NCBI GenBank assembly: GCA_044892525.1
Contig: CM097887.1
Location: 61,814,001 to 61,878,000, forward strand
Length of the DNA: 64,000 bases
Origin: Schmidtea polychroa
Lineage: Eukaryota
Direction of reading: 5' to 3'
The notes beneath the pieces are model-generated. The model was given only the letters and a program-made list of their open reading frames with translations, was not told the origin of the DNA and searched no databases. This document shows positions 1 to 29,434 of the stretch, one piece after another; within the stretch, counting starts at the first letter, position 1; each line of letters begins with the position of its first letter. A program made the translations under genes and the position numbers.

Positions 1-204
1 TTTAATCTTTCATCTATTTATTTATCTTCAAATCATTTACAAGAGATGAGTATTACCTCGAGCAATTTCAATTGAAATTTCTTGAAAAAATAAACTTATT
101 TTTAGAATCGATTGTTAAATTTTATTATTATTTACAAAATGAAATAATATATAAATTAAAAATATGAATTTTACAATAAATCTAATTTTCAAAGATTTTT
201 TTTC

Positions 205-349
205 CAATCCACATTCTCAGAGAAATTTCAATAACTGACATAATTGAATTCTCTTTTAGAACGAAGGATAATTGATTCTCAATCCACATTCCCAGAGAAA
301 TTTCAATAACCGACATAATTGAATTCTCTTTTAGAACAAGGATAATTGA
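205..349. repeat. Two-copy ~75-bp tandem duplication
   Basis: caatccacattc(t/c)cagagaaatttcaataac(t/c)gacataattgaattctcttttagaac... starts at 205 and again at 280, with few mismatches. Confidence 0.9.
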
Positions 350-576
350 CGGCGAAACTTCAATGAGTTTCCCCAAATTGCCTCTCAGATAGCCAATGAT
401 TTTAATGCATTAAATGGCTTCTGATTGGCTGCTTTTTCTTCCATTAATAGGTAAGAAATTTTATTTTTTCTTCATATTTTTTAATTCAGGAACAAAATGA
501 GAAAAAGATTATTACTGGAAATCAATGTTCTGGGGGTGCATTCAATTCTAATACGTTTAACAAATTATGCTACTTC

Positions 577-1109
577 TCTGAGAAGCACTCAAAAATTACT
601 TTGGAATCAACTAAGAAAACACGGCGAATTATGTGACGTAGCCTTGATTGTTGGTCAAAAAAAAAATCTTAGCCCATAGAATTGTGTTATCTGCATGTAG
701 TCCTTATTTTAAAGCTATGTTTACTGGCGAATTATCTGAATCACTACAAAATGAAGTAATTAAATATTTGGTTATCTTTATCAAACGATATTAGGTAACA
801 TTAAGGGATATCGATGAAAGTGCTGTTGAAGCATTGGTAGAATTTTGTTATACATCTCAAATTGTTATTGAAGAGTGGAATGTACAGTGTTTACTACCAG
901 CTGCTTGTTTATTACAATTATCAGAAATTCAAGATGTTTGTTGTGAATTTTTTAAAACAGCAGCTTGATCCATCTAATTGCTTAGGTATCCGAGCTTTTG
1001 CTGATACTCATGCTTGTAATGACTTATTAACCATTGCTGATAAATTTACACACCATAATTTTCAAGTACACTTTATTTATTATTACCTCAAGATCGTCCT
1101 CTTATGCAG
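577..1109 (+). pseudogene. KLHL20: Kelch-like 20 / diablo BTB-BACK fragment, frameshifted and internally deleted
   Basis: Joining frames across a 39-bp GT-AG intron gives [142 protein letters not shown], then [12 protein letters not shown] (1074-1109), closely matching KLHL20. Frameshifts near 610 and in the A10 run at 657-666; most of BACK is missing and no Kelch repeats follow. Confidence 0.85.
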
Positions 1110-2183
1110 GTGGATAAATTTTGTGTTAATATAAACTTATATTGATTATTTATTATATTGTGTAAAATAATTTTCAGACTCTTTGATGATTTAACACAAT
1201 AAATTGAAACATTAATTATCGCAATTGTCACTGTATTAACTGGAAATCTATTTCCAACTTAAAATGGAACGCAGAGACATGAATATTGTTGATTTCGAAG
1301 CGAATATGAAACCATGAAGTATGTAGATATTAGCCCCATAGACCACTATGAGTTATATAGATTCCATTTCTGAATTAGGATGAATTTTGTAGATTTTAAT
1401 TGATTTGCACTCGAAAATTTGGTGTTTAAATGGTCACAAAGATCTATTCTCACCACTTCTATGATACAAGATGCTTTCAAGTCATTAACGTATAAATCAA
1501 TCCTAAAAATTATTATATATTTGTATTTAAAATTTCATTGAGATTTTCCAATTTTTTTTTACTGTAACTGCAAACTCAGCCTTCAATAAATCAGGGTAAA
1601 ATAAGTTGAAAACGAATGCGCATTAAGGAACAAATTAGTGATTGCCTTCTGTTATCGTGGGAAAAGAAGTAAGCGCATTCCAATCTGTAAGAGAAGACTA
1701 CGAAAAATGTGGAAAGATCTAGAATAATGATGATTCCAGATAATGAAAAATTTTTGTTGAGTTTTCTGTTCTGGTTATTGCAAATTTTTCTGCAGACAAA
1801 TTAATTTGACAGAGTTTTTATTTGTTATTAAAAATTTATTATGAAATCCTCTTTCTGGCAGCAGGGATTATAAGAGTTTCCTTTTCAAACTCCAGGAGAA
1901 AGAAATTTGAATTTATATATTTCTATTTGGATTTTAGGAAGTAAGTTATTTAATCTTTATTAATTTCTATTTTTAATCATTTGAATAAATATTTTTATCC
2001 AATAAATTAATAATTTTCGTCTATACTCAAATTTTATGCATAGATATAGATAAATAGTTTTGGATAAATATAGATATAGAGACACCGAGATACATAGAGA
2101 AACTTATAAACAAATATAGATTTAGATAAAAATATAGTTCCATTTATTCATAAACGGTTTCAATGGAAAAATCAATGACTACT

Positions 2184-2252
2184 GACAACTACACACTTCC
2201 AATTGTCGTCCAGGGTAGCCAAACTCCGACAATTGGGAATGTGTATGTTGTT
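2184..2252 (+). other. Imperfect ~69-nt stem-loop
   Basis: gacaactacacacttccaattgtcg pairs with cgacaattgggaatgtgtatgttgtt around an 18-nt loop; two mismatches are G-U compatible on the + strand. Confidence 0.6.
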
Positions 2253-2389
2253 ATTAAATGTTTTATTTATTATTTATACATTTTCCCTTTAATTATTTGG
2301 GATTTAACTGATGAGCTACCAATTAATAAATGAGACAACGCGAGTTCAACATTATTTATTTTTTATAAATATTATATATATATATTAAT

Positions 2390-3859
2390 TTAGTTCATTT
2401 TAATTTCCAATTGTTTGGTTCCATGCCGATACCGTATTATTGTTTCTTCCCGTTCATAGATTACCCCATCGATGGTTACAGTCTCCCCAACATCAATATT
2501 TGAAGGGTTTTTTCTTTTTCTCGCTTGTCGACATTCGGGCATTGGACCATACTCAAGTGTTGGGTGTATTCTTACCATCGAGACACTTATCATTACTGAA
2601 ACACATTCTTGTGAAATTTCCAAAAACGATTCGGTGGCCCACTTTAATGGAATTAATGGATTTTCAGTCTCCATCTCCACATTCTCCTCGCTTGTCAAGT
2701 CAATTTGTTCTGCTTCCATTACATCGTCAACCGGAATTTGTGCCACTTTCTCCGCTATTGCAGTTGATGCTGATGGTACCTCTCGAAGTTTTTTATATTC
2801 CTCCAACGAATATTTCTTTGATGGTAGGTTTTTGGGCATTGGTATATCATCAATCCATTGATTTTCCACTCGTTGATATACCTTGCGAATGCTCTTCACA
2901 TCCTCTAGAGCCGAATGCACACCGATTTGTGTTTCTTCTCCACATATTTCTCTCACTACCGTTTGTAATTTGAACCATTCTCCTTTCCTGGTTACTCCCA
3001 TGTTCTGAAGTATTGGTGCTGCTGCTAGATCTCGAATGCCGTACAATTGTTCAATCCATATCCCCAAGTATTGTAATTCTGCATGCAAATCATGGCCGAT
3101 CAATATTTTGCCTACTGTCAAGCGTTGTATCTCTTTCATTGCCACATATTGATCACATTGGTTCCTGCTGGCCACTTCTGTAATTCCATGGATCCTTGAA
3201 TTAAAATGTCGGATTTTTCCTCTTGGAGTGAGGTATACATCTTTTACTACTTTCCCATAATAATTCATAATTGCTATTGCTAAAGGGACCATTTTCCCTT
3301 GCTCTGATGTGCCATATTCAGCATCAATGAATAATATTCTACTGCGGATTTCTTCTAGATCCATTTCTTTTCTGAGAAACGACATTTTCCTTTTCAACAT
3401 TTCTTTCGAAATTTTCATTAACATTGGATCTTCTCTTGCACTTGGCTGCATCTGCGGAACTTCGTTCGCTTCATTTTCGATTCTGATTTCCACTACCATG
3501 GTTGTTTCTTCATTCGCTGCTCGTAACAGTCTCCACATGAAGTCTCTGTGCAGCTTCCACGACGTAAATTTTTTAAGTTCCCAACACACTTTGTTGTCAT
3601 TCGTCAGTACCTCAACGGTACCCTTGATCACATGTAGATGATATTCTTCTTTCCTTGACATCTCGACTTCTTCCGCTAATCGCAATTTTGACATCCGCAT
3701 GATCGTAAACATTTGGATCTTCATTTTTCGGTCATCAATTCTTAAATAATTTGGGATTTGGAGATTATCATTTATCCGGTATACTTTTTGTCCGGCATGA
3801 TTGTTCTTCATTTTGATGTAGCTGTCGTAGGTCGACCTTGCAAATTGTATTTGTTCCAT
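2390..3859 (-). CDS. 489-aa protein with a REX4/ISG20-like DEDDh 3'-5' exonuclease domain
   Basis: ExoI FIDAEYG, FNSRIHGIT, ExoII ILIGHDLHAEL, IRDLA, ExoIII HSALEDVKS. Intronless, intact, same strand as the retroelement; C-terminal RKRK basic patch. Confidence 0.85.
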   Translation of the reverse strand: MEQIQFARSTYDSYIKMKNNHAGQKVYRINDNLQIPNYLRIDDRKMKIQMFTIMRMSKLRLAEEVEMSRKEEYHLHVIKGTVEVLTNDNKVCWELKKFTSWKLHRDFMWRLLRAANEETTMVVEIRIENEANEVPQMQPSAREDPMLMKISKEMLKRKMSFLRKEMDLEEIRSRILFIDAEYGTSEQGKMVPLAIAIMNYYGKVVKDVYLTPRGKIRHFNSRIHGITEVASRNQCDQYVAMKEIQRLTVGKILIGHDLHAELQYLGIWIEQLYGIRDLAAAPILQNMGVTRKGEWFKLQTVVREICGEETQIGVHSALEDVKSIRKVYQRVENQWIDDIPMPKNLPSKKYSLEEYKKLREVPSASTAIAEKVAQIPVDDVMEAEQIDLTSEENVEMETENPLIPLKWATESFLEISQECVSVMISVSMVRIHPTLEYGPMPECRQARKRKNPSNIDVGETVTIDGVIYEREETIIRYRHGTKQLEIKMN

Positions 3860-4054
3860 TTTTTTCTACAATAGTTATATAATTAAAATTTGAAGTTAAT
3901 CTAATTTTAACACTAGGGTTGAGATGGGGTACCCAAAGGATACCGTCCCACCAACTAGTTATATAAATAAATAATAATAATTACCGTTTAGTTAATTGTT
4001 GATTTATTTATTTTTTTTTTCAAAATTAATGGAGTTTAATGGAGTTAACCCTCT

Positions 4055-4121
4055 TTTTATACCCTTATGAAAATTCTCTTAACCCCGTTTTTCTCTCCCC
4101 CTTAACACAGCGCTAACCAAT
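4055..4121 (-). promoter_or_regulatory. Putative internal promoter for the exonuclease ORF
   Basis: Minus-strand TATAAAA at 4055-4061, about 200 bp upstream of the ATG at 3859, and a CCAAT motif at 4117-4121, in the 435-bp gap after the pol stop codon. Confidence 0.5.
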
Positions 4122-4294
4122 CAAATTGATTCTTTCCGTTGATATTGAAAAGTGCAGATTCACAAGTAAAATAAAATGAAATATTGATCATATCCATAAT
4201 GAAATAAAATATTAATAATATCCATAAAATATTTATACTATATTACTACTACTACTTTATCAATTTTTTTTGCATGCAAAGTATTTATGTCTTA

Positions 4295-5500
4295 CTACAC
4301 AAATGTTTCTTCATAAACGATCCAAGGTCTCGCAATCTCGGATCGATTCGTAGAAGGTTTGGGTATTGCTCGAAATTCAATTAGCACAATGATAATGAGA
4401 ATAATGAGAGAGATTTTTATAATGAGAGTAGTTATTAATAATGTTACACACACAATTTCACTGTCAGTTTTTAATGACGATATGGTTCCGTTATTAGTCA
4501 TTGACTCATTGATGCTAGAAAAGATGATTACGTTGGCAAAGCTAGGGGTTTGGTTGGACTGATTTGATTTGTTTCGATTTCCATACTGCGAGTTAATAGA
4601 TGGAATTTGCACAATTTTATTTTCCACTAAAGTTAATTGCCATAGATTTGAAAATAGAGAACGTCTATAGTATTTTATTTTAATGAACACAAATTTTGAC
4701 GTCGATATTGGTGAGCGTTGACGAAAAGTTAATATTTGAGATCTATTTTTTTCATTTAATATCGATTGAATTTTTCGATAATAATATAAAATAGCTTTTT
4801 GATTGGGCTCCGCTTGTCGGGTAACATTCACTAATTGATTGAAAATATGAAAAGTAACCCGGTTTGTTTCATTAACTAATCGTATCATATGTTGACTAGA
4901 GTGTATTCTGATCCATTGGCTATCAATTTCAGTTCCGTTTTCATATAAAGATTTTTCATAATAATGAATCAGAATATTATAGTTATGATGTAATTTTAAA
5001 TTTGCATACTTTATAAAGGGTTTTCTGCTATTCAATGTATCTATCGCATAATTTTGAAAAACTGCTTTTACTTGTTGGGATTCCTGGGGTTCCCAATATA
5101 TGTCAATTCCATTTACCAGTGGTTCAATTGATACTCGATTATGTAATCTCTTTGTCCAAATATTAATGCGTATAAGATTTTGTATTTTTGTATTATTACT
5201 TTTCGAATCCAATTGCGTAATTAACCAAGGGTATTCATAATTCATTGTTAATTGTCTAGCCACATAAATATTTTTGGTGCTGTTCAATTTTATTGGGGGT
5301 TCAAAATAGTTTATTAGATTATTTATCTCTATTTCTTCTGCTCCTCCAGCATAATAAACCCAAACTATTTGAGTACATGTTGAGTAAATATGAACTTTGT
5401 CTAATAATACAACTGTATTAGTTGCATATAACGGGAATACTCTCACTGCATTTACTGACATTATGTTGATAATCATTACTGTTGTAATCAATAAAACTTT
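4295..5500 (-). CDS. C-terminal extension of pol: type I membrane glycoprotein (signal peptide, FN3-like ectodomain, TM)
   Basis: In frame after integrase: hydrophobic VLLITTVMIINIMSVNA (5447-5497), about 11 N-X-S/T sequons, FN3-like spacing GIDIYWEP...LKLHHNYNILI, and TM IVCVTLLITTLIIKISLIILIIIVLI (about 4381-4457). Confidence 0.7.
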   Translation of the reverse strand, partial: KVLLITTVMIINIMSVNAVRVFPLYATNTVVLLDKVHIYSTCTQIVWVYYAGGAEEIEINNLINYFEPPIKLNSTKNIYVARQLTMNYEYPWLITQLDSKSNNTKIQNLIRINIWTKRLHNRVSIEPLVNGIDIYWEPQESQQVKAVFQNYAIDTLNSRKPFIKYANLKLHHNYNILIHYYEKSLYENGTEIDSQWIRIHSSQHMIRLVNETNRVTFHIFNQLVNVTRQAEPNQKAILYYYRKIQSILNEKNRSQILTFRQRSPISTSKFVFIKIKYYRRSLFSNLWQLTLVENKIVQIPSINSQYGNRNKSNQSNQTPSFANVIIFSSINESMTNNGTISSLKTDSEIVCVTLLITTLIIKISLIILIIIVLIEFRAIPKPSTNRSEIARPWIVYEETFV

Positions 5501-5639
5501 ATTGATGTAACTCAATGGAGCAGGGTTTTTTGTAAATTTTTGTTTAATTACTGGGTTCCCTGCATCTTTATTTGGCTTTGATCTCAATGGATAACGTGAT
5601 TCATCTTCTATTATCTTCTTGCATCTATTTACATGAACG

Positions 5640-7558
5640 ATGATTGTCCCAGCCTTTTTATTGTTTTGTGGACGCAATTTTAAGTTAGTCTCTGTCGTAT
5701 CACACACTAGATATGGTCCTTTAAACGGTCGTTGCAATTTCGTTGACAAGCCTTTTGTCGGTTCTGGTTTGTTTATATACACAAGATCTCCAATTTTAAT
5801 GTCATGTGCCCGTGCGCGTTTATCATAGCATTCTTTATACGCTTCTTGATGATGCCTTATGTTAAGTCCAGCTTGGATCCATACTGACTGTAGTCTTTCA
5901 TGCATAGCTATTTTATAATCTGACACATCCATATATTGGGAAATAGGTGACTGAAATTCTAGATCGACTGGCATATTGTTTCGTCGTAGATACATGAGAT
6001 AAAAGGGTGTTTCTCCAGTGCTTTCATTTACTGCATTCCGGTATGCAAATAAGCATGGTTTAATGAATAAATCCCAATCCTTTTGTTTCCTATTTACATA
6101 GGATGATATCATATTAATTAGTGTCCCATTAAATCTTTCAACTAGACCATCTGTTTGTGGATGATATGGTGAGGTACTAAGTTTCAATATACCAAATAAA
6201 TCTGTAATTGATTTAAATAATTCACTCTGAAAATTTGTTCCTTGATCTGTAAGTAATTTCTTTGGTGCTCCGTATCGAAAAATAATATTCTCCACAAATA
6301 TTTTCGCAACTGTTTCTGCTTTCTGATTTGGCATTGCATAAGCTTCTGGCCATTTAGTAAGATAATCGCAAAAAACGATAATGTATTTGTTGCCATTTGT
6401 TGTTTCCGGCAATGGACCAACGATGTCCATTGCTGTCATTTCCATTGGCGCCTTGGGCACTGGCATAGGCTTAAGCGGAACTTTTATTTTCCGTCCCGTA
6501 TTTCGTCTTGTTAGGCATATCTCACACGTATGACACCATTGTCTGACATCTTGTTCCATCGTTTTCCAATAATATTTCTGTTTCAATCTTGATAATGTTT
6601 TTCGCGCTGATAAATGCCCTCCTAATGCTCCATCGTGATACAACAACAGTAATGATTTTCGATGTTTTGTCGGAACAATAATTAACAAATTTTCATTTTG
6701 TACACATTTTAACAAACCATCATGAATAATGTATTTATGGTTCTCTTCGGCAATATGTTTCCAGTCACTCTCCTTTTTGATTGAGACAGCATGTTGACGT
6801 AACTGATTTAATTCCTCGTCATTTTCCTGATCATCTTGTAATTTTTCTATATTATTTACCGTTTTAATTGCCATGAATATTGTATTTTCGCAATTATTTT
6901 CCTCTTGATCAACATTATTTTCTACGGGTATTCTCGACATAGCATCCGCATTTGCATTTGACTTTCCTGTACGATACTTTATCTCGAAATTATATTCTTG
7001 CAACGCAATTGACCACCTAATTAATTTACTGGCCGAATCTCTGTGCTTCATTAGCCATTGTAACGGATTGTGATCCGTAAAGACAACAAATTTTCTGCCC
7101 ACTAGGTATTGTCGAAAAGTGGTTATCCCATATACCAATGCTAACGTTTCTTTTTCGATTGTCGAATAATTTTTTTCATGAGGTTTCAGTGATCTGCTGG
7201 CATAAGCAATTACATGATCTTTTTCCCCTTCTACTTGCTGTCCTAATACCGCGCCTAATGCGAAATTACTGGCATCTGTCATTAATATAAACGGTTTTTT
7301 AAAGTTCGGACATCTTAATATCGGCTGTTTTATTAAGCTTTCTTTGAGTTTATCAAACGCTTCTTGCTGAGCTGTTGTCCATTTAAATTTTGCTTGCTTT
7401 TTCAATAACATGTTCAAAGGTTGTGCGACATGTGAGAAACTTTTAATAAACTTTCTGTAATAACTAGCTAATCCCAGAAATTGTCGAACCTGATCTACAT
7501 CCTTGGGAATAGGATATTCCTTAATTTTCATTACATTTTCTGGATTTGGTTGCAAACC
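5640..7558 (-). CDS. pol: pol: RT connection, RNase H and integrase
   Basis: RNase H LMTDASNFALGAVL / EKETLA / FTDHNPL / ADAMSR; integrase zinc finger GGHLS...WCHTCEIC, catalytic MDIVGP / LTDQGTNF / GLVERFN, and GPY motif FKGPYLV. Confidence 0.95.
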
Positions 7559-8500
7559 TCAACGCGAAATGATATGACCCACATAAACTACTTCAGATTT
7601 TCCCCATTCACATTTGGAGGGTTTTATTTTTAAGTTTTCTTCTAACAATCGCTTGAATACTGTTTCCACATCCTGCAAATGTTCCTGAAAACTATTCGAA
7701 AATATTATTATATCGTCAATATACACTAATGCATGTGGTATATCGCGCAAAACGAAATTCATACCTCTCTGAAATGTAGCAGGCGCTCCTGTTAATCCGA
7801 ATGGTAACACGTTAAACTCATATAGACCCTTCCCATCTGAAAATGCAGTTTTCCTTCTGTCTTCCTCTTTGACTTTAAATTGATTGTATCCTTTATTAAG
7901 ATCTATTACCGTAAAATATTGCACCTCCCCCATCTGATCGAACATTTCCTGTGGAACAGGAATAGGATATGTATCTTTTCTCGTAACTTGGTTCAATTTT
8001 CGATAGTCGACACAAAATCTTAAATCACCGTCCTTCTTTTTAACTACTACTATTGATGATGAGAATGGTGAGGAACTATCTCTTATTATATTGAATTCTT
8101 TCATTGCTTTGATTTGCCGATCACTTTCTTCCTGATGTATGTATGGTATTCTATACGGCCGTAATTTTATTGGGGTTTCGTTGAGTAATGGTATTTCATG
8201 CTCAATCACCTGAGTGAGTCCCAGATCATACTCATGTTTTGCAAATACATTTCTATATTTCTTTAATAATGCACCGAATTCTTGTTTTTGCAAATCCGTC
8301 AAATCTTTGCTTGTGATCTGAGGTTCTTTATAAATTTTTATATTTCTCGGTAACTTCTGAGCTTCCTCTGATTTGATTTTTGTTAATTTTCCCAATTTGG
8401 TTTTGGGCTTTATTTCAACGGATCTTGCACTATAATTCGCTATTCTAACTGGTACTGACTTATTTTGGACTTTCACTACTTCATCACACATAGGCACATC
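7559..8500 (-). pseudogene. pol: pol: reverse transcriptase bounded by two premature in-frame stops
   Basis: LRFCVDYRKLN, IDLNKGYNQ, LPFGLTGAPATFQ, VYIDDIIIFS. TAA at 8501-8503 and TGA at 7559-7561 interrupt one continuous frame shared with the protease and RH-IN segments. Confidence 0.95.
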
Positions 8501-9020
8501 TTATTTTTCAACCAGCTTTTGATTTGGCTCAAATATGTACTCCTCATCTGAGACCCTCATAACATCTGCATAGTATATTACTTCGCTTTTTGGTGGTACT
8601 TCCAATGTTTGGTTTAGAAATACCTCTCCTACTTCAGGCACTACTTCACCCATTTGTCCTTTTATTAGTTTTCCAGTTCTCAGATCAAGAGAGATTCCAT
8701 CTAGTTGCTCCATGACATCCATGCCAATAAGACATTTTACAGGACTTTTTCTCATCACGGATACCCAATGAATTATTTCTTGATCTCCAATTATCAGTTT
8801 AACTTCTAATTTTCCAACAATATTTAGTGCATTATGTGACATTGATTTAATAATGTGATTCGTTGGTTTTATTTTGGCTTTCTCCTGATACGTCAAGAAG
8901 CTTTCCGCTACTATAGTATGACTTGAGCCTGAGTCTAATAAAGCTTCCACTTTTCTTTTGTTAAACTGTATGTTTATTCGAGGTTGTTTTCCTCCTACTA
9001 CTGTTGTCATTAGTGCATAG
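8501..9020 (-). CDS. pol: Retropepsin (aspartic protease) and linker
   Basis: VEALLDSGSSHTIV and CLIGMDVM motifs, in frame downstream of the glycoprotein TM and cytoplasmic tail. Confidence 0.9.
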
Positions 9021-9399
9021 CTGCATGGTAAACCAAGCATATTCTTTCTTTCAATTTCCGCACTCGTTGGTTCAATCTTCTTTAATTCTATTGTGATATT
9101 ATCGACCGATTTCATCTCCTTTAGTTTTTCACTTGGATATACTGGTGCTGTTGGTCTAAATGTCGGGGTGTACCATCTACTAAGAGTATCAATCCCGCTT
9201 AATTTTGGCATTGGTTCAAGCAAGAACCTGGACTCTGGCTCTACTTTACTCTTTATTACACTTTTTCGAAAGTATTTATGCTCCGATTCCCCGTTGTTGT
9301 TATCATCATTATGATCGTCGTTTTTATCTTCCGACTGACACGTCGATTCCTCACTTTTCCGGCCATTTCTTAATTGTGCCCTTACTCTTGCCATTTCTT

Positions 9400-11203
9400 T
9401 AAATTGATGATCTGTAATAAAGAATCTTGCCAACAATGGAATACAACCAATAACTAATTTCCATGACCATCCCGATATTACGTATATTCGATGTACTGAC
9501 AACATTTGCGACACTACCACCTTTGCCGTTATCATAATCACGTAAATTCCAATTAAACCTGCACATGCTTGTCCCAAAAACATGAACTTGCCCAAATCTT
9601 TTCCATCGTTTTATACGTAGCTCGTTTGAAATGATCAGGTGTTAGCAAATTTTCGTAATTTACTGTTCCTTCTCCATTCGGTAATACTGTGTCAATCATT
9701 TCTGAAATTATCCGTTCCTTTTTGGATGGAAACAACAAATTCCTTTGAGCTTCTTCGATATCTTCGCTTGCATACAAGCCCATTTGTGCCATTTTGTTTA
9801 GTGATGTGAAATTTATCAGGTATTCTAAATTTGTTAATTCTAGTTTGTCTGGAGTCTTGACCCCACGATAGTCTGGTAAGGCTATCCATGAGTCGGTAGC
9901 TAATCGGTATAAAGGGGCTAATAATCAATTGCATTGCAAAAGTTTTGGTTTAGTTTGTTCATCAAGCAAGATTCTTGTTATCGGTTCCATAAATCGTACC
10001 TTTCCCCCAAAGCTTACTGGTAATTCGTTCGTACATTTTTCGTATTTGGCAATTTTCACTGTGACTTCTTTGCATTTTTAACTGTATAATGCTTCTCCAA
10101 ATATTCTCGCAAACACTCCATTTTCTGATATTAGCATAGGTGCTACTAAATTTGGATTCGTAATTGCCATCACCATCCGATTTCGGAGAATCTCTTTATT
10201 CAACTTACAATCGTTCAGAATCATTTCTCTATATACATTTTCCATGATGTTTTGACTAAAATGAAACAAATAATCAATTTTATTATTAAAATAATGAGTA
10301 AGTTTAATGTCATCTCTATGAATTTTTATTTTTGCTTCTTCCACAACATTTCTAGACACGTAAACACCTTTATAATTTGTTACATATACCATTCGACCAC
10401 ATTTATTTGTGATTTCCTTTTTTATAAATCGCATTCCATCTGCTGGTAACGTAGACATTAAAACTGTTCCCATTTGCTTTGTCCATACTGGGGTTGATTT
10501 AATGGTATTATTTGGTCTATAATTCATATTGAAATTATCTGGTTTATCTCTAAACTGTTCTCCTACTAGTTCTTTAAAGTTCATAGTTTTTAAGTGCGCT
10601 AAATTACACTTATTTGTTTCTACATTATAAACAAGAATCGATTCCCCTGTTTGACAATGTGTTTGTTTCATATTACAGAATGGATGAGTTTGTAATTTTC
10701 CCGTATCATCATCGAACTCCTTCGAACTCTCTCAACTCCGTGAGATACTCTTCTAGCACCACTGTTTGCTGAATAATTTTACCGTTCATTTTATATGGTT
10801 CACCTTCACAGTCGCCATTTGCTTTCATAACTCCCTTTACAATTATTGTTTCTCGTATTCTATGGTTCAATTTTGCCTTTAAACGAATTTCTGGACTTAT
10901 TTTTAATTCTCCTGTTTGAAATGCTGCTAGACAGTTTTCTGGAAGCACCTCGACTGGCCTAGGTATCGCATGCATTTTTATGAGTGACGTATGGCTCCAT
11001 TTACCACAATAAAATACAAATGTTGTATGTTTGACAATACACTCTCTCACTTGAGTTCTTCGCAGATCAGACTCCTGATACACATAATATTTTACGTCAT
11101 TTTCTATTTTTAAACTGCTCGGATACGCACCTGGGCACTCCGACATATCTACTACCGAATAAACTTTTCCCATTTCAGTTTGGGAACAATCGTACGCAAC
11201 TAA
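9400..11203 (-). pseudogene. env: Chuvirus-like (class III, gB-like) envelope glycoprotein located between gag and protease
   Basis: Begins LVAYDC after a signal peptide; Cys-rich; contains FNNKIDYL, NPNLVAPML..GVFARIFGEALYS*KC.EV.V...CTNELPV...FMEPITRI, GLYA...LLFPSKKE and a hydrophobic C-terminus FLGQACAGLIGIYVIM...GWSWKL. Lesions: frameshift near 10715, TAA 10078-10080, TGA 9925-9927, frameshift near 9592. Confidence 0.75.
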
Positions 11204-13207
11204 AGATGATGTCTGTGTAATTATTGCACAAAACGTAATCACCATAAACATCGCCCATGGAAATATCATAGTTTTTCTTAGTTCTGGCTTAACTCTTTCA
11301 TTTACTCGTCTTTGGGGTGGACTCATTTCTTGCTTCTCATTTTTCTTTTCTGTTAGAGATGAACACAGTGTTTTCCAACCACCTTTTTTGTTTACCCAGC
11401 TCATTAAATATTCGTTTACTAGCCGGGCAGCGATGTCTATCAAATTTTCTAACTTGTCTGACCTTGCGAACGTATGCGTTCCAATTTCTAAAACAACATA
11501 AGTTAAAGCTATTATTATAACCTCCTTATTAATTTCATTTTTTGCCAAATTTTCAATTACTGATCTCTCGCAAAATGTATTCTCTTCGCCAAATTTCTGC
11601 ATCACTTCAGGAAGCCTATTCTTCATCTCTTTAACTATTTCTTTCAGTTCATCATCTACTTCTACTTCTATGTCGAACATTGGATATACTGCTTTAACGA
11701 GATGTTTCAACATTTTCTTAGTTTCGTCGACGTCCTGTTCTAGCCTCACTAAATATTTCTTTATTTCATATAAAGTTCTAACTTTCTTATTTTTGATTTC
11801 ACCATTTATCTCGCCTTCAGGTACAAGTGACTCTCCTTGTACGTCTGGTTCTGTGGACTGATTTTTGTTATCAGGATCTTTTTGCTCATTATCACTAACG
11901 ATTTCATCAATTTCTTTATTTCCCTTAACTTTTTCATCTTGTTCCTCTGTGTCAGGCTTGTTAGACTCAATATTTACTTCTAAACTCACTCCTTTTACTA
12001 CGACTATATGGTTCACTAAATATCCCACTCGTCCATCTCGGATCAAATATCCGTTTTCATCCAGCTCTTGTGGTACACACTCACAATCATATAGGTATTC
12101 ATCATCGTCAAGTTCTTCACCTTTGTACATTACTATAATAATTCCATCTTTTCCCAGCGTTTCAGCCGCTCTCTTCCGCAATTTTCGGACCTTTGCACAC
12201 CAATGCTCGTCTACATATTCCGTTTTGCCATATCCCTCATAATCTAATGCTATCAAAAATGGCTTTAACTCTACTCTTGCCTTTCTGAGCTCCTTGCCCA
12301 ATCTTTGCAATAAACTTCTTAATAACTTGGCATATCTGGTTTTCACATGTAAATATGGTCGTATTGTATTCACTATTTTTAGTTTATCGTTGTCCTCCAT
12401 TTCTAATTTCTCAATAATCTGTAACTTCTCATCGATTTCATCTTCATCTCCAATATATAACGCATCATTTAATTCCTCTAATATCTCCCTTGAATTCCTT
12501 TTGTCTATTATTTTACTATTTATTATTTCATCACTAGTAATTACATTTTCCATTTTTAATTCATTTGTACTTCCTGGAATAAATCCACAATCTACCAAAA
12601 ATTCGTCATTTTCTAACAATCTCTCATTAAATCTCAACTCTATCATGCATCCTTCCTTTTTTTCTTTTAATTTCTTCTTTAAATCATTTACACAATCATT
12701 TGCCTCACAACGACAACATAATACACTTTTATCAATCTCGTTTACTACTTCCACCAAGATGGAATCTAAGCCTGTTTTCTCTCTCAAAGCTTTTCCAAAT
12801 ATTTTCATTAATTCTTTAATTTCTTCTTTATACTTTGGATTCATATTATAGTAGTTAACGCACAAGCTAATTACACTTTTTATCTTTCTCATACTCAAAG
12901 ATATTTGACTTAATTCTCTCAACGATTTGATCACTTTAGCCGACTCTATTTCATTATTTCCAATTAGTTTTTCGATTCTGGTCATTATCATTGTTGCTTT
13001 TTCACTTTCTAAGTCATCTTTTATAACTCTCCTTTTCGACTCTTTTTCGTTCAATTCCTCTTGCGACTCATACATCATGTGATTATTGTAGTCCTCTTCT
13101 GATTCAAACTTTGACATCAATCGATCCAAACGTCGACCCATTTCTCTCACTTCGTTTTCAATTCTTTCATTAAAATTATCTGGCTGAATAAAAGCTACAT
13201 TATCCAT
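11204..13207 (-). CDS. Cargo region of ORF2: two helical + ubiquitin-like modules, coiled coil, Bcl-2-like domain, TM/signal peptide
   Basis: UBL-like segments at aa 148-220 and 316-380; BH2-like LMSWVNKKGGWKTLC; hydrophobic MIFPWAMFMVITFCAIITQTSS. Open and in frame with the glycoprotein N-terminus. Confidence 0.65.
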
Positions 13208-14436
13208 CTGCGCCTTTGGAATTTATCCATATTTCTTGGACATGATCTAGCCATGTGTCCATAACTTCTGCATGAATGACATTGAATTTGTCCTTGTAGA
13301 TTTACTTTATCTCTCTGCGGTGATGGTGATGTTGATGTTGATCTTGACCTGGCAAAACAATTTCGTGACACATGCCCTTTTCTTCCGCAATTAAAGCATT
13401 GTAAGTTATCATTAGTTCTCTGCTCATTAATGTTCGCTTTAGTGAAACTTTTCGCACCATTTCCTTTTAACCAATCAGGCCACATTTGCCTTGGACTCCG
13501 TTGTACATTATTTTTGGACCAGCATTGATTGCTGTCATGTCCCATTCTTTGGCAATTATCACACTGAATCGGAATTGGGCTTCTCTGTACTCTATTTTTA
13601 AACCAGCATTGGTTAACATGGTGTCCAATCCTTTGGCAATGACTACCTTGGATGGGACCTTCCTTTCCATCTATTTGAATATCTGTTGACTTGTTCGACT
13701 CAAATTTGGATCTAAATTTTGGTGATGGACTACTTGTTTGTTGAAAACGATTGTTTCTAATTGGGGTTACTGATCTTTCGCTTGCGCCTGAGATGACTGC
13801 AAACGACTCTGATTTTGACTGTGTGCTTTTTAAATTTAGCTCAATTTTCATTGCCTTTTTGATCAATTCATCAAAGTCATTAAAATCAACATAGCATAAA
13901 GCCTTTTTAATTTCTTTCTTTACTCCTGACAAGAATTGATCCTGCAATAATTCTTTTACCTGCTTTGCCATCTCGGCCTGTTCTGGTTTCACTTCGAACG
14001 CTTTCTCTGCAAGAGTTGATAAATGATAAGAAAACTCACTTACCGATTCCTCTGGCTTTTGTACGCGGTTATAGAATTTCTGTCGCATTATCCGTTTGAT
14101 ATCCACTAGGATTAATTTCGTGGCTAACGCGTCTTTCAACTTGGTCCAGTCATTTGCTACTATTCTTTTATCAATTTGTTGCCACGCTTCTCTGGCTGCT
14201 CCTTTTAGGTATAGCGGTAATCTTTGCACCATTATCGATTGGCTCCATCCATAGGCCGTCGCATACATATAGTAATCTGCCATAAAATCGACAAATTCCA
14301 GCGGATCTCCACCGTACTGATCCACAGGTAGTTTTTGACAACTCGCATAATCATTGCCTTCCTTGCCGTTGCCCACCGTGGACACAGGTGTTTCGTCGTT
14401 GTTATTTGTATTATTGGTTAGTCTTTGGGTACTCAT
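13195..14436 (-). CDS. gag: Gag (retrotransposon capsid domain plus CCHC zinc knuckles)
   Basis: First ATG at 14436. YGGDPLEF..F, RLPLYLKGAAREAW, QKPEESVSEF, QFLSGV; three intact CX2CX4HX4C knuckles and one degenerate. Confidence 0.9.
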   Translation of the reverse strand: MSTQRLTNNTNNNDETPVSTVGNGKEGNDYASCQKLPVDQYGGDPLEFVDFMADYYMYATAYGWSQSIMVQRLPLYLKGAAREAWQQIDKRIVANDWTKLKDALATKLILVDIKRIMRQKFYNRVQKPEESVSEFSYHLSTLAEKAFEVKPEQAEMAKQVKELLQDQFLSGVKKEIKKALCYVDFNDFDELIKKAMKIELNLKSTQSKSESFAVISGASERSVTPIRNNRFQQTSSPSPKFRSKFESNKSTDIQIDGKEGPIQGSHCQRIGHHVNQCWFKNRVQRSPIPIQCDNCQRMGHDSNQCWSKNNVQRSPRQMWPDWLKGNGAKSFTKANINEQRTNDNLQCFNCGRKGHVSRNCFARSRSTSTSPSPQRDKVNLQGQIQCHSCRSYGHMARSCPRNMDKFQRRRWIM

Positions 14437-14808
14437 TAAATTCTCTATTAGTGTTTGGCTTCTCAATTTATAAAATGATCGGGTCAACACAGGCTTTACT
14501 CGTCTAAAATTCAAAGTGTTACAATTACAAAATTTACCTTTCGTTTTAATTTTGACTTTTCAACAATCAATCGTTACAAATTTTTCCACTTTGCTTCAAT
14601 TATAAAATCACCACTTTAATAATTCTCAAATAAATGTTCACCACTTTCAAATAAACGTTTCACTTCAATATTTATTTATTTAATTATTATTATCTTTTTC
14701 CAAATTTTTCCGATACTTTACTAATCTCAACAAATTTTCACCGATCTTTTTATTCTTCGGTATCACGCAAATATTATCACAATTTCAACAAATCTTCACC
14801 GACTTTTG

Positions 14809-14826
14809 ATCACGTCGGGCTCACCA
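14809..14826 (-). promoter_or_regulatory. Primer-binding site complementary to the tRNA-Trp 3' end
   Basis: Minus strand TGGTGAGCCCGACGTGAT, 4 nt after the LTR end CA; 17/18 match to the animal tRNA-Trp(CCA) terminus ATCACGTCGGGGTCACCA. Confidence 0.85.
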
Positions 14827-14830
14827 AATA

Positions 14831-15729
14831 TGTTGGGTTTTTAATGCAAGTCGGTACTACGGTCTGACTCCTTTGTGTTCTTTTCCAAATAAATAAATAA
14901 ATAAATAACCCAACACAAAATCTTTATTGACACTGATGCAATTACACTTTTACACTTGTATTAGTTTACTCACACTTGATACAATCAGGTTTTGTCTGCA
15001 CTTTTCAATTTATTAACAAATCTCACGCAGGGGTAGATCTTCCAACGGGAGATGTCCCTTTCTGGTACGTTCGATTTTTAAATGGTTTAATTTCTACTAA
15101 CTTTAATATTTCCCTTTTCGCTCTCTTCAAACTTCTATTTTCTTTTCTTCGACCAACTGGCATTTTGTTTTCTTGCCAGTTGCTTTTATACTCGTTTAAT
15201 AATTGACTTTATTTTTGCCAATTATCTTTGGTCCTATTTCCCCCCGGGCTTCCTCTTGGAGATCTAATTTAATTGAATGGAATTTGTTTGACGGCGCTTT
15301 TTACTTTTTATCCGGCTAAATTAATTGCCTTCCCAAAATTAGATTTCTCCGGCTAAATTAATTGCCTTCCCGAAATTGGATTTCTCAATTCGCTCGGGTT
15401 TTCCATTGTATCGGGTTTCCCATTAGCTCGGGTTCTCCATTAGCTCGGGTTTCCCATTAGCTCGGGTTTTCCATTAGTTAATTAATTTTTAATTAATTTT
15501 TGTTTTTTGTAATTTATTCCTTTTAGGGACCCCCCATTGATTTTATTTTATTATAGCTGAACTCGTCTCATTATTTCGCATCCGCCCATACCAGTTTCCC
15601 CCAGAAAATATTCATTTTTTAAAATTTTTGATTTTTAATTAATATTTTGTACTTTAAATTTTTATTCTGAATTTGGTGTTTTTGTCAATTTTCACCTCAT
15701 TTTTGTGCCTCCCTTGTTGAACCCCAACA
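14831..15729 (-). repeat. 5' LTR (899 bp)
   Basis: Terminal inverted repeat TGTTGGG...CCCAACA. U3 has a 37-bp tandem pair (15311-15384) and about five 17-bp ctcgggtttcccattag units (about 15390-15476); minus-strand TATAAAA near 15184-15190 and AATAAA near 15009-15014. Confidence 0.8.
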
Positions 15730-16075
15730 ATATTTACCAATATGGGGTATATGTCAACGGATTTCGGATATCTACGGTGCGTTGCATGCAAATTTAAATT
15801 TAATAAAACTTTAACATAAAAGTGCAAAATTTAATTGTTTAGGTCAATACAATATGTAATTTATTATCTTGTAGCTTATAAAGGAAGCTGTGGACCGAAA
15901 AAGGTTTTACGACTTTTACTTATGAGAAAAAATTCTTCTTTTGAAAATAAACAAAATAAACAAAATTTCCGTTCAAAACTTTAATCGCATAATAAAGGAT
16001 TCATAATACATAAATAAGGTATGAAAAACCTAACCCATAACCATAACCCTAACCATAACCATAAATATTGTATGC

Positions 16076-16541
16076 CTGGATGATTCAATCAAGAAAAACT
16101 CATCGCAGGACAATTCAACAAAATTAAATACAAATTAAAATAAATATTAAAATGTAAAACTACCAAAAAACATTTAAGTTAATGAAAAATCATCTAGTTG
16201 AAATTTATCACCAGTAGTGGGTATAGAGATCCTTGAATGCTTAATTATGTTGTAGGGATAGGGTGAATAAAAAGCAAATAAATTAACTGGAAGCTAGTGT
16301 AAAAGTTACGGATTGTGAAATTATATTGCTACCGGTCTTGTTATCATTTTTATACGAAATAACCTTGTACTAATAAAAAATTTAAAAGAAATGTAAAACA
16401 AAATTTGGATTATAATAACTTCTTGACTTTCCATTAACCTCAATGTTTTTTTGGTTGTTTTATTTTTTATTATTTATTTTAATTTGTATTTAATTTTGAT
16501 GAATTGTCCTGCGATGAGTTTTTCTTGGATGAATCGTCCAG
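16076..16541. mobile_element. Foldback/MITE-like element with ~120-bp inverted arms
   Basis: ctggatgattcaatcaagaaaaactcatcgcaggacaattca (16076-16117) is the reverse complement of 16500-16541; pairing continues inward to about 16195/16424. Confidence 0.75.
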
Positions 16542-17350: not shown

Positions 17351-18882
17351 TTAAAATTCATCTAAAATAAAACTGTCGAATTCTTTGTCATAACTATATA
17401 CTGTGCAGAAATCAGATGATGATGATCTTTGCTTGGGGTCTCCCCGAGTTTTGAGAACATCCAAAACTGTTTCTTGAAAAATTTCGAAATAAATATTCCT
17501 CATTACCAGGTCAATGTCCATTGTTACACAAATAATAAACGAAATCATTTTCACATTAAATTCGATTTTCTTATCAAATCTTTCATAGTTTTTTCTATCC
17601 TCTTCATAAATATACCATGAAAAATCTCTATTCAAATATACAGACTGATTTGATATTGTTAATTGGTGTCCATAAAAGCTTTCAGAAAGTTTTACTGCTT
17701 TCTCCATTATCGGCATCATTTTTATTATGATTTCTGCATTATTTATTGTGATAATCGACACGGTACCACACAAGAATTTTTTATTATTATTAAATTTTTT
17801 TAATTGAATTTCTTTTCTATCATTTGAAAATTTTTGATAAAGATTAACTTTTTCAATTGTCTGATTAAAACAACATTTTACTGAAATAAATTGTAATTTA
17901 TTTCTTAAATTTATCATCTGTGGCAATTTGGAATTTTTTGGAGATTTTTTGTAGATTGGAGTGGGATTTTCTGAAACCAATTGTTTCTGATTCACACTTT
18001 TAGAAGGCTTATTTTTACGGCGTATAATATATTGTTTAGTTAACATATTACTAGTCTCCTTGAGAGGAATCTCTTTAAAATTATCTTGATTCCCTAGTGA
18101 TGATTGAAACAAATTTTTATCTAATAGTTTGGGATATTTGTTGTAGGGTTGTATGAGAAAGTTCAAACTGTCATTTAAACGGACATTTGATTTATTTACG
18201 TAATTCAAATGGCACTCCACGACAGAAGTTGATTTGAGATTTCTTTGAAAATTCAATTTTCGATTATTAGAAATTCCCAATGAATTCATAAATAAAATTC
18301 GATTCTTTTTATTCACTAAAAACGTTTGCTTCAAAAGAAACTTTCGTTTTTTATAGTTGACGTATTCAGAATCAGATAGACCAAAAGATTTTTGCAAGAG
18401 ATATGTTTTGTTTGTGAGATTTTTCGATTTCCTCAATTCTAAATAATTCTTAGACATTTTATGAATTGATTTTTGAGTTTTGTTATTGATTTTATCATTC
18501 AAGTTATTTTTTTTCAATTCCACAGGATAATTTGATATATTTTTAGCTTCAAGAGAATCTTTTGAAACCTTTCCATAATCAATAACAAAAGAATTGACCG
18601 ATTTAATGAATTGACGATTGATGTTTGACGTTGAATTTTCGATATTGGATTGAGTTAACGGGTTTTCTTTCATTCTCGCCAATGGGAATATTTTATGATT
18701 GACAAAAGTAAGCTGATTCAATGGAAAATTTATATCGCGTTTTCTAACAGAATCCATGTTCTTGGTTTCTTTTACCAGAGAATCATGAAAGTTTTTTTCA
18801 CTTTTATTATTAGTGAATTCAGAATCGCTACAAAATAATTCCCTGTTGGTTTTGCACATTGAACTACGTGTAACTTTTCTTC
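17351..18882 (-). CDS. Large exon of an uncharacterised K/N-rich host protein
   Basis: Stop-free 502-aa frame in AT-rich DNA, with a plausible splice acceptor near 18883; no family recognised. Confidence 0.55.
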
Positions 18883-18952
18883 TAAAAAATTATTATTATT
18901 TTTTATAAATATTAATATTATTATTATTAATATTATTACTAATAATAATTTT

Positions 18953-22511: not shown

Positions 22512-24399
22512 TAACTAAAAATAAACCAATCATTATATTAATTAATAATTAATTGATTATCCATAAAGTTTATTAAAATGTTTTTAAATCTTTAATTATG
22601 ATTTGAAAAATTAAGTTTTAGTTTGGAAAATTATTAGTGCAGAATAAACCAGAGCAGTGGCCTAATTTCTAAAAGAAAGAATTTGAATGCAATAAAAAAC
22701 CAACGATAATACACTAAAACCTCGATTTGCGTCGTTAATTGGGCCTTAAGAAAGACGACGCAAATCGAAATTAATTTTTCCTTATAAAAATGTATTTTGT
22801 TAATTAGTACTAAAACAAAAGATCGCTTGGATTAAAAACTATTTTTATTTCAATCATTATGTATATATGTAATACATGAACCAACATTAAATATAAAACA
22901 TAAATTTATTAAATAACAAATAAAATAACATAAAAATTCATTAAATAAACAAAATATAAAATTCATTACACAGAAACAGTTTGTAACTTTCTGTTTTGTA
23001 ATTCTAATTCAATGAACTTGACGATTCTAAATCGATTAGCGTTTCTGTAGACTGTTTCTGGTTTGGTTCTCGTTACAGTTAAAACCTTGTCTAAAGTTTG
23101 CTGAACTTGTGCAGCTTTTCTTTCCATATATATTTTTTATAGCAATTGATAGCGTTATCAATAGTTCGCGTAACCGTTAAGCATCGATTTTCGAAAAATT
23201 TAAATAGAATTTTTATGAAATAATAATAAGAGCTATATTTTTAAATAAAGTAATTAAAGGCTTAAATTTTAAATTAAATTAATAATTTATTTTCAGATAT
23301 TTTGAAAAACTATCATCTGATGAGAAATGAAAATTTTAAATGAAAACTTTTATGAAATATTTTTCAATGACAATTTTAAGTTAAAATTTTTATGAAATAG
23401 TTTTAGATGGAAAATAAGTAAATTAAGTAAATTAAAGTAAGATTTTTAAATTAAAGTAATCAAGTGTCTATATTTTAAACTTAAGTAAATTAAATGTAGG
23501 ATAAATTATGGTCTCAAATTTTAAATTAAAGCAAATTAATGTCTAAGTTAATTATGTAAATTACAATTAAATTTTAAACTAAAGTAAATTAAAGTTAATA
23601 ATTTTAAATTAAAGTAATAATTTAAATTTTATTGTCAGATATTTGGAAAATCTAGCAATCAAGGAAAATTGACAATTTTAGATGAAAATTTTAATGAAAT
23701 AATTTTAAATGAAAATTTTAATGAAATACTTTTCAAAGATAATTTTAAATGGAATTTTTTATGAAAAAATTTTCAATGAAAAATTTAAATAGAATTTTTA
23801 TGAAATAATAATAAAAGCTATACTTTTAAATTAAAGTAAGTCAAAGCTATTTGGTAAAATTTTAAATTAAGGAATGCAATTTAAAATTAAGTAATAAATT
23901 TTGAAAAATGATGAGAATTGGTAATAATAATTAAAGAAAATTATGTTTAAGTTAATTAGGTTTAAGGAATAATTAAGGAATAATCTTTCCATTTAACACT
24001 ACAGTGTTAATTCTTACCATTTTAGAATAATATTTTTTATTAAAGTTCTCATCATGATTTATTCAATTTTAATTGAATTTAATGACAAATTCCTTTGAGT
24101 TATCTTCAGTTTTAATTATTTAATTTGAAAGATTATTTAGACGAATTTTGGTAATTTTTTAGAGTTGATGTTAAGCGAATTTAGGAAATATTCAAGTGAA
24201 TTTATTTTATTTTTTGTGATTTTTATGTTGATTGAAAGAATATTTAAAAATTTAAGGTTGATTTTAAGATAAATTTAATTAATTTCTTGATAATTTGCTG
24301 TATATTTATAGATTTATTTTTTAATTTAATTTTAAATAAAAATTATTCTTAATGACAGTTAATAATTAGAGTAATCAAACGATAGGATAAATTTTGATG

Positions 24400-28903: not shown

Positions 28904-29434
28904 TTATTCAAAATATAAACCATAGACCGTCACAACTGAATATATTGAACATCCATCAAAGATGGCTTCTGCGACATTGTCTCCTGTCTCTGGATACCAA
29001 AGAGATCGGCTGGCGAAATTGACATTTGCCGTTGATTTATCACCAATTGAAACAATACAAATTAATTTATAACGATTATAACATAACTCCTTTACCATTT
29101 GTTTTATTTCCACAGCTAACTTTTTACAGAGTTCAGGGATTTCAACCCGGTCATATTGGACTCCCGCTAGTCGTTTTTGTAATAATTCAGCTATGCGCGG
29201 TTCAACTTTCTTCAAAATAAATTTATTTTTATTATCCGGCATTATTCGATATGTATTCTCATAAACATCGGGAACAAGATTCGATTTCGTTATCAGAGGA
29301 TACAGACTAAATCTTTTTGAATATATCGTAGATCGTCGCCGTTTCATAATTGATCCACGGCGATCTGTTGGATTCGAGATTGATTTCGACAGATCACCAT
29401 TTACAATACTCATTCTTTTCATTTCCGAATCCAT
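28904..29434 (-). CDS. Tctex1-domain dynein light chain (TCTEX1D/DYNLT type)
   Basis: YENTYRIMP...YDRVEIPELCKKLAVEIKQMVKELCYNRYKLICIVSIG...ASRSLW..GDNVA...VYGLYFE. Confidence 0.9.
   Translation of the reverse strand: MDSEMKRMSIVNGDLSKSISNPTDRRGSIMKRRRSTIYSKRFSLYPLITKSNLVPDVYENTYRIMPDNKNKFILKKVEPRIAELLQKRLAGVQYDRVEIPELCKKLAVEIKQMVKELCYNRYKLICIVSIGDKSTANVNFASRSLWYPETGDNVAEAIFDGCSIYSVVTVYGLYFE

Follow-up and report, generated by a model that had tools for sequence, protein, structure and literature searches.

A decayed Burro-type retroelement with a probable accessory gene for an ISG20/REX4-type DEDDh exonuclease

An open reading frame (ORF) of 489 aa lying 3' of the pol region of a decayed retroelement encodes a product assigned, with the support of its sequence motifs and a structure model, to the DEDDh exonucleases of the ISG20/REX4 branch. 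The product represents a family in which, as judged from alignments and models, a cupin-like domain at the N-terminus precedes a DEDDh domain of ISG20/REX4 origin, with a disordered tail behind it. The ORF very probably belongs to the retroelement, a linkage drawn from codon use and strand skew. The exonuclease gene was present once (n=1) in the window, by which is meant the whole 64-kb stretch of DNA that was analysed, and a second copy was not found within it. The features of the gene and its surroundings are as follows.

2390..3859, minus strand: accessory ORF, 489 aa, comprising a cupin-like domain, a DEDDh (here D-E-E-H-D) exonuclease and a disordered tail
3479..3778, minus strand: N-terminal beta domain (aa ~28-127), conserved family-wide, probably a cupin/double-stranded beta-helix
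2843..3343, minus strand: ISG20/REX4-type DEDDh domain (aa 173-339), with D179, E181, E261, H315 and D320, and Asn220 at the position of the 2'-OH-binding Arg
2393..2842, minus strand: acidic low-confidence tail (aa 340-489), with IDLT at aa 386-389 and RKRK at aa 447-450
4030..4123, minus strand: putative internal promoter, with a reverse CCAAT box (4114-4123), TATA (4054-4061) and an Inr-like CCATT whose A is at 4030
3860..4030, minus strand: putative 5' leader, with a possible short intron (3984-3866)
2185..2251, minus strand: imperfect hairpin in the putative 3' UTR, directly past AATAAA sites at 2271/2267 (z -2.5 for 2150-2392)

The ORF begins with an ATG at 3859 and ends with a stop at 2390-2392, and no stop or frame break interrupts its 489 aa. 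Exactly 435 nt separate it from the pol-frame stop (4295-4297) on the same minus strand, and this gap contains no LTR-like sequence. The coordinates thus bear out the initial annotation, which had described an intact 489-aa ORF 435 bp behind the pol stop, on the same strand and with no LTR between them; its description of the gene as intronless holds for the coding region, outside which the possible leader intron remains. The same annotation had set an ORF free of stops against a polyprotein with several, and the counts agree: none in the ORF, and 4 in-frame stops with 3 frame changes over the 10,265 nt of the polyprotein. A stretch of 1,467 nt would be expected to carry 1.0 break at this density, the probability of no break is 0.37 (0.32-0.42 for 8-6 breaks), and the decayed pol itself holds a longer unbroken stretch of 1,087 codons. 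For these reasons the intactness of the ORF is at chance level and is not evidence for selection on this copy. The annotation had left selection and chance side by side; chance suffices, and intactness as a sign of selection was rejected.

The remainder of the element was recognized upstream, in the following order.

14831..15729, minus strand: putative 5' LTR of 899 nt, with TG...CA ends, a 7-nt terminal inverted repeat, TATA at 15190 and an Inr-like site 32 nt on
14809..14826, minus strand: primer-binding-site-like 18-mer, 4 nt past the LTR
13195..14436, minus strand: gag with CCHC zinc knuckles (zf-CCHC, E 1e-9)
11375..12733, minus strand: ubiquitin/SUMO-like (12733-12566) and BCL2-like (11647-11375) regions, E 0.0075 and 0.0085 respectively, both under the Pfam cut-off
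9293..11251, minus strand: env, lying between gag and protease and encoding a fusion glycoprotein of mononegavirus type (matched by PF24664 in four parts, E 2.5e-23 to 5e-8)
6158..8989, minus strand: protease, RT, RNase H and integrase in Ty3/gypsy order, with stops at 8501-8503 and 7559-7561
4295..5698, minus strand: 467-aa post-integrase extension, with 12 N-glycosylation sequons and a C-terminal transmembrane-like segment

The primer-binding-site-like 18-mer is one that we take to be tRNA-Trp-like. All 14 of the weak PDB matches to the BCL2-like region were to BCL2-family proteins, and no family match was found for the post-integrase extension. The env gene is broken by frame changes near 10720 and 9580 and by stops at 10078-10080 and 9925-9927; with 4 stops and 3 frame changes overall this copy of the element is dead, and the first frame change in the polyprotein could be a programmed one. 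Because the predicted domain order (Gag-Ubl-BCL2-env-PR-RT-RH-IN) equals that described for planarian Burro/GYPSM1, the carrier was assigned as a decayed, env-bearing LTR element of Burro type. A dUTPase-like domain between protease and RT and MATH, BIR and ankyrin domains gave no match to Pfam, while HHpred was used for some of these in the Burro work, according to the available text of PMC6431247. No 3' LTR was detected in positions 1-2392 or elsewhere within the window, and the element has either lost its 3' end or continues beyond the window edge; the span observed from LTR to ORF stop is 13.3 kb, with a polyprotein of ~3,400 codons. Beyond the ORF lies AT-rich DNA and then a fragment of a broken BTB/BACK gene on the opposite strand, for which a motif scan located no Kelch-repeat exons. 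The DNA is low in G+C, and this, together with the Burro-type architecture, pointed to a triclad flatworm as the probable host. An Rfam search over 1-16500 returned a single match (E 0.45), taken as chance, and no tRNA genes were found.

Several compositional measures associate the ORF with this element. Its synonymous codon use favoured the element over a model of flanking ORFs by +43.5 bits (0.095 per codon, equal to gag), the flank model being built from 7 ORFs of which 3 are unannotated and 1 is a mobile polymerase. When each sequence was left out in turn, 7/8 element segments were positive and 0/7 flanking ORFs. The A/T frequencies at four-fold sites were 0.48/0.12 in the ORF and 0.51/0.12 in gag, compared with 0.24-0.40/0.26-0.67 in the flanks, and the strand skew of pol persists across the ORF and stops near 2000. 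Neither repeat ends nor a transposase were found around the ORF.

The predicted active site consists of D179, E181, E261, H315 and D320, and the ExoI D-x-E, the ExoII acidic residue and the ExoIII H-x4-D were all matched. Alignment places E261, within HAEL, at the ExoII Asp of ISG20L2 and ISG20, in agreement with the initial annotation, which had noted a Glu in HAEL as the ExoII acidic residue. The coronavirus ExoN set is DEEDh. The match of the ORF to Pfam RNase_T fell below the cut-off (E 0.013); phmmer matched it to ISG20L2 (E 2e-11), ISG20 and SDN1, a profile matched ISG20L2 with E 2e-32, and the closest solved relatives are ISG20L2, ISG20 and Pan2. The structure model, built from 4 sequences with a mean pLDDT of 54 (70-90 across most of the nuclease), has the DnaQ/RNase T fold and ISG20 as its closest structural match (Z 16.3, rmsd 2.7, 157 residues aligned), with RNase D at Z 10.0 and TREX, ERI1 and Exu ranking under ISG20. 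An Atlas search with the whole ORF returned generic RNase_T clusters only, and the N-terminal part gave nothing above 0.80. Motifs, phmmer matches and the model therefore all support the earlier naming of the product as a REX4/ISG20-like DEDDh exonuclease, and the product is probably an active two-metal 3'-5' exonuclease.

Relatives were collected with a profile made from the ORF and two full-length relatives, which retrieved 3008 cluster representatives at E <= 0.001; the best 150 of these 3008 were taken. The tree was built from 152 proteins minus 17 nuclease fragments and 9 vertebrate-looking cellular rows, leaving 126 and the query. One long-branched clade contained 57 of the 127 exonuclease domains (FastTree 0.998; IQ-TREE SH-aLRT 100), apart from 70 cellular REX4/ISG20-like rows, which were classed by motif and by Atlas and PDB matches and gathered with no deliberate sampling of REXO1 or PAN2. 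A phylogeny against cellular REXO4/ISG20-like proteins was the check suggested at the outset; the ORF falls in the separate clade and is not the host REXO4. The query is at most 28% identical to any of the 70 cellular domains and up to 48% identical to family members. With the fragments, 16/17 of which score higher to the family profile (the remaining 1 matches via its N-terminal part), the family numbers at least 73 relatives, a lower bound from the best 150 of 3008, nearly all in separate 50%-identity clusters. RT, integrase or Gag domains were absent from the 61 proteins scanned, and none of 4343 candidates of 966-2755 aa proved to be a fused form of the nuclease, which is a weak test. BLAST of the 73 family proteins against the other ORFs of the element produced three weak matches (E 0.001-0.006), which were taken as chance, and none of 99 GTDB pattern matches was confirmed as a prokaryotic relative.

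The active sites of the 57 family nuclease domains comprised 20 D-E-E-H-D, 18 D-E-D-H-D, 6 partial and 13 degenerate sets, compared with D-E-D-H-D in 67/70 cellular rows, and the catalytic residues are maintained in members only 40-48% identical to the query. As Glu at ExoII is common within the family (23/44 members with intact sites) and Asp and Glu switched at least 4 times on the tree, it appears to be a tolerated family trait rather than a sign of decay. Two further residues distinguish the family. The Arg that binds the 2'-OH (R226 in ISG20L2, R53 in ISG20, R185 in SDN1) was present in 66/70 cellular rows and in 1/44 intact-site family members, where it was replaced most often by Gly (15), Val (11) or Glu (6), and by Asn220 in the query; the Met beside ExoI was likewise found in 60/70 and 1/44 respectively. 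The 13 members that lack the catalytic set form one clade (SH-aLRT 98), all 13 of which keep P212, R213, D236, E237, Y328, W335 and D337, and this conservation suggests a selected binding role beyond catalysis.

The N-terminal beta domain is folded in the model and was unmatched among the cellular rows. Its family hallmarks are IPN, His76 and Glu124 followed by an SF-x-R linker, and conservation across the family was 40/44 for P36, 34/44 for N37, 38/44 for H76 and 35/44 for E124. Foldseek returned many cupin matches (E 1.8e-5 to 2e-4, TM ~0.5) from a model whose pLDDT in this part is only 63-80, Pirin_C_2 matched with E 0.21, and refolding of the domain from a single sequence gave a pLDDT of 42 and a best Z of 5.6, with no clear match. 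The metal-binding set of cupins is His/His/Glu/His. Only one conserved His and one conserved Glu were found here, and since Foldseek matches the domain to cupins while this set is absent, it is probably cupin-like and non-catalytic. In the tail, IDLT is presumably SUMO-interaction-like and RKRK presumably NLS-like; IDLT occurred in 6/57 family members (1.2 expected) and in 0/70 cellular rows. The initial annotation mentioned neither the cupin-like domain nor how large the family is, and it did not note the missing 2'-OH-reading Arg, the dead clade or the Burro architecture.

The gap between pol and the ORF contains a TATAAA starting at 4061, a CCAAT box in reverse orientation and an Inr-like A at 4030, 31 nt past the TATA. 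When the gap was shuffled 5000 times by dinucleotides, each of the bare TATA and CCAAT cores arose in 79% of the shuffles, which is chance level, and both were rejected as evidence for a promoter. A CCAAT consensus 25-90 nt from a TATA arose in 0.36% of shuffles (0.04% with a strict TATA); the consensus strings were picked after the sequence had been seen, and the shuffle figures are optimistic. This full arrangement occurs once per strand in 64 kb, and an Inr at +29 to +33 accompanies 4 of the window's 187 TATA sites, among them those of the putative ORF promoter and of the LTR. The 330 nt before the start (4190 to 3860) contain no ATG, an absence reproduced in 0.04% of shuffles, or in 3.9% when the last 175 nt are taken by themselves. 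Position 3984 has a donor-like site, and an acceptor-like TAG, matched in 22% of shuffles, stands 7 nt ahead of the ATG; with these the leader could contain an intron, or the message could be driven by the LTR and spliced, for example from a donor-like site at 14537 in the LTR leader to 3865. Use of the putative internal promoter is fairly likely. The TATA and CCAAT motifs reported initially are thus present, the CCAAT reversed, and it is their extended arrangement rather than the bare motifs that stands above chance; together with the codon use this makes it probable, as was proposed, that the element has a 3' accessory gene with a promoter of its own.

A role in counter-defence was considered for the product. 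SDN1 trims small RNAs bound to Argonaute, and its R185 contacts the 2'- and 3'-OH groups of the terminal nucleotide (PMC6123492); these terminal contacts are the stated cause of its poor activity on 2'-O-methylated RNA and on DNA (PMC6123492; PMC10899777, in the sections available). Burro elements are targets of the PIWI/piRNA system, as reported in PMC8532177. The proposal rests on the loss of the Arg from the family, the trimming of Argonaute-bound RNAs by SDN1, the silencing of Burro by PIWI and the conservation of the dead clade. An ancestral element would have captured a cellular REX4/ISG20-type 3'-5' exonuclease, fused to a cupin-like domain, and the gene would then have radiated along with the elements. 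Its own CCAAT-TATA-Inr promoter would permit synthesis apart from the Gag-Pol polyprotein, and the product would work in trans within host cells, probably in their nuclei. A pocket blind to the terminal 2'-OH could then trim small silencing RNAs protected by 2'-O-methylation, or excess cDNA of the element that would otherwise set off silencing, while the dead clade would retain a binding or decoy role. That host defence is the target is close to an even call, falling a little on the lower side, and the whole chain, from Burro-type accessory gene with its own promoter to trans-acting counter-defence nuclease, is put forward tentatively. A narrower form, in which a dedicated anti-piRNA enzyme attacks the 2'-O-methyl-protected 3' ends of PIWI-bound piRNAs, with the cupin-like domain for targeting, a promoter of its own that drives expression before the main transcript or independently of it, and the dead clade as an arms-race decoy, is unlikely. 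Loss of the Arg may simply weaken the enzyme, and it could fit a DNA substrate equally well: activity falls to 38% in ISG20L2 (PMC10899777) and is also lowered in SDN1 (PMC6123492), according to the available text of both. It also counts against counter-defence that rotifer elements with exonuclease ORF3s have no clear tie to copy number and are still targeted by small RNAs, as far as described in the sections available of PMC5408684.

The Arg loss enters differently into the alternative that the enzyme assists replication, trimming cDNA or RNA ends or excising mismatched 3' nucleotides for RT in the manner of ExoN and so permitting very large genomes. Loss of a ribose-reading residue suits DNA; by analogy, the gain of ExoN in nidoviruses is tied to genome expansion (PMC6211748), Burro elements exceed 30 kb (PMC6431247) and 3'-end processing has been proposed for the exonucleases of rotifer ORF3 (PMC5408684) and KolobokD (PMC9587614), each in the portions of these sources available. 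However, the present copy measures just 13.3 kb from LTR to ORF stop, a clade of 13 dead members would be incapable of proofreading, and fusion to pol was seen neither among the 4343 long candidates, weak as that test is, nor as an RT or integrase domain in the 61 proteins; with its own putative promoter the product also has no evident path into the particle. Such a helper is improbable, if still worth weighing. An action on the ends of host pre-rRNA or mRNA, in concert with the BCL2-like and ubiquitin-like domains, would accord with the other host-modulating domains of the element and with the closest solved relatives, ISG20L2 (which acts in pre-rRNA processing), ISG20 and Pan2; set against this, the RNA-reading Arg and the ExoI-adjacent Met each persist in 1/44 members, so that the ancestral RNA specificity looks abandoned, and this manipulation of the host cell is distinctly unlikely.

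The ORF could belong to a different mobile element or to a virus, or to an expanded intronless host family, and lie near pol by chance, and its own putative promoter, the missing 3' LTR and the carriage of DEDDh genes by KolobokD transposons and large DNA viruses all allow for this; yet it shares codon use and strand skew with the polyprotein, lies on the same strand 435 nt from pol with no repeat ends or transposase found nearby, and has a putative promoter that resembles the LTR promoter in build, and an unlinked neighbour is likewise distinctly unlikely. A neutral passenger or inactive relic, without present function, is less probable again: the chance-level intactness, the dead copy and the existence of a dead clade would be consistent with it, but catalytic residues are maintained at 40-48% identity, which needs purifying selection in active elements. 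That the gene is the ordinary REXO4/ISG20 gene of the host is extremely unlikely, despite best solved matches to ISG20L2 and ISG20; it lies outside the cellular clade with at least 73 relatives and has a folded N-terminal beta domain unmatched among the cellular rows, and orthology to REXO4, ISG20 or ISG20L2 is contradicted by the separate clade, the ExoII Glu (E261) and the loss of the Arg (N220). The preferred reading remains the accessory nuclease acting in trans against host defence. If it suppresses piRNAs, this bears on how animal transposons resist piRNA silencing; if the enzyme instead edits for RT, it bears on how giant retroelements stay viable.

The family was not described in the literature searched, which covered Burro and planarian elements, GYPSM1, ISG20 with LTR retrotransposons, and gypsy cupin-exonucleases; the primary Burro paper and Repbase may note the ORF. 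The available sections of PMC6338049, PMC13238120, PMC10123124 and PMC11410931 contain nothing on the exonuclease family. Exonuclease cargo is already known from mobile elements and RNA viruses (rotifer LTR elements and Terminons, KolobokD, RNA viruses), and what appears to be new is the probable capture of an ISG20/REX4-branch enzyme with a cupin-like domain.

Arenavirus NP (PMC7968707) and nidovirus ExoN (PMC6211748) are, as described in the accessible text, host-derived DEDDh enzymes for immune evasion or proofreading and so functional analogues, but they have zinc fingers and are sited in viral core proteins, and no sequence link to the ORF was found. KolobokD (PMC9587614, in the sections available) also bears a DEDDh accessory nuclease; it is, however, a DNA transposon with an Exuperantia/TREX/ERI1-like nuclease, while the neighbour here is an LTR pol and a Kolobok transposase was not seen. 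The cellular enzymes ISG20, ISG20L2, REX4, SDN1 and Pan2 are alike in fold and in the arrangement of the catalytic residues (Z 16.3 for ISG20); the present family differs in forming a distinct clade, in an ExoII residue that is often Glu, in the lost Arg, in the cupin-like domain and in the dead sub-clade. Burro and GYPSM1 are giant gypsy-like elements of planarians (PMC6431247), in which an env between gag and pol was called a first case, and the element here resembles them in its CCHC Gag, Ubi/SUMO-like and BCL2-like domains, mononegavirus-type env ahead of the protease and PR-RT-RH-IN order; accessory ORFs occur in them as well. It differs in extent (13.3 kb seen and ~3,400 codons, against 4,873-5,140 aa) and in that MATH, BIR and ankyrin domains were not found here by Pfam. 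The available text of that review lists no exonuclease for Burro, and the primary descriptions (Grohme 2018, Jurka 2007) may note one. The rotifer Juno and Vesta LTR elements and Terminons (PMC5408684) likewise encode a DnaQ-like 3'-5' exonuclease in a 3' ORF of its own, the motif there being reported as changed to DEED, and no report of demonstrated activity or a target for this cargo was found in the sections available. In agreement with the initial annotation, which had cited them as a DEDDy precedent, these ORF3s are described as DEDDy, RNase D-like and typically spliced; the present ORF shares their position 3' of pol but has a His in ExoIII, placing it outside the DEDDy class, together with a beta domain and a probable internal promoter. 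The rotifer and present ORFs are independent captures, the present one from another nuclease branch. It has no fewer than 73 diverged relatives, the residue that contacts the terminal ribose is changed family-wide, and a sister clade is catalytically dead.

The pol frame of the carrier element, a decayed Burro-type LTR retrotransposon, continues past the integrase, and a hairpin lies behind the exonuclease ORF.

4295-5698 (-), Asn-rich pol-frame extension, reaching 467 aa beyond the integrase
2185-2251, imperfect hairpin, 140-205 nt 3' of the exonuclease stop

The extension was found to contain 12 N-X-S/T sequons and a transmembrane-like segment at its C-terminal end, and comparison with Pfam and the PDB yielded no match. 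Judged from its sequence, the extension is possibly a second membrane glycoprotein of the element. Its codon use, scored toward an element model versus a flanking-ORF model, was intermediate (-2.6 bits), which fits later capture. Within the exonuclease family, members predicted to be catalytically dead formed a well-supported clade, in which a set of surface residues is kept; the proteins in this clade (tree handles) were P0022, P0041, P0043, P0049, P0050, P0052, P0055, P0060, P0065, P0068, P0079, P0096 and P0105.

Several other ORFs and gene fragments were located in the window.

600-1110 (+), Kelch-like BTB/BACK gene fragment
28904-29455 (-) and 34751-35332 (+), two intronless Tctex-1 dynein light-chain ORFs, divergently oriented
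17351-18889 (-), 20274-22514 (-) and 53241-54041 (+), long ORFs

The reading frame of the BTB/BACK fragment shifts twice, each time at a homopolymer run, and part of its interior appears to be deleted; kelch-repeat exons were sought within the window and none was found. The three long ORFs had no match in Pfam and are probably large host exons.

Repeats and mobile-element remnants were also recorded; in addition, runs of N occupy positions 46185-46372 and 58840-58980.

42483-46492 and 62284-63972 (-), two related protein-primed DNA polymerase B remnants
50420-50759 and 58430-58839, two-copy repeat, ~8 kb apart, blocks 87-96% identical
16076-16541, MITE-like element directly outside the 5' LTR, inverted arms of 95 nt, 92% complementary
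30210-30421 (+), LTR-like remnant; a 215-nt alignment with a segment of the putative 5' LTR shows 66% identity
15340-15470 (-), short tandem repeats within the putative 5' LTR, read from the sequence

The polymerase B remnants share blocks of 68-83% identity, are accompanied by an endonuclease VII-like motif and are presumably Polinton/adintovirus-like. A second inverted-arm pair resembling the MITE-like element was observed at 41385-41814. By its similarity to the LTR, the LTR-like remnant is taken as a trace of a related element. The tandem repeats of the putative 5' LTR have two unit lengths, 19 nt (four units) and 37 nt (two units), and Burro elements are likewise drawn with tandem repeats.
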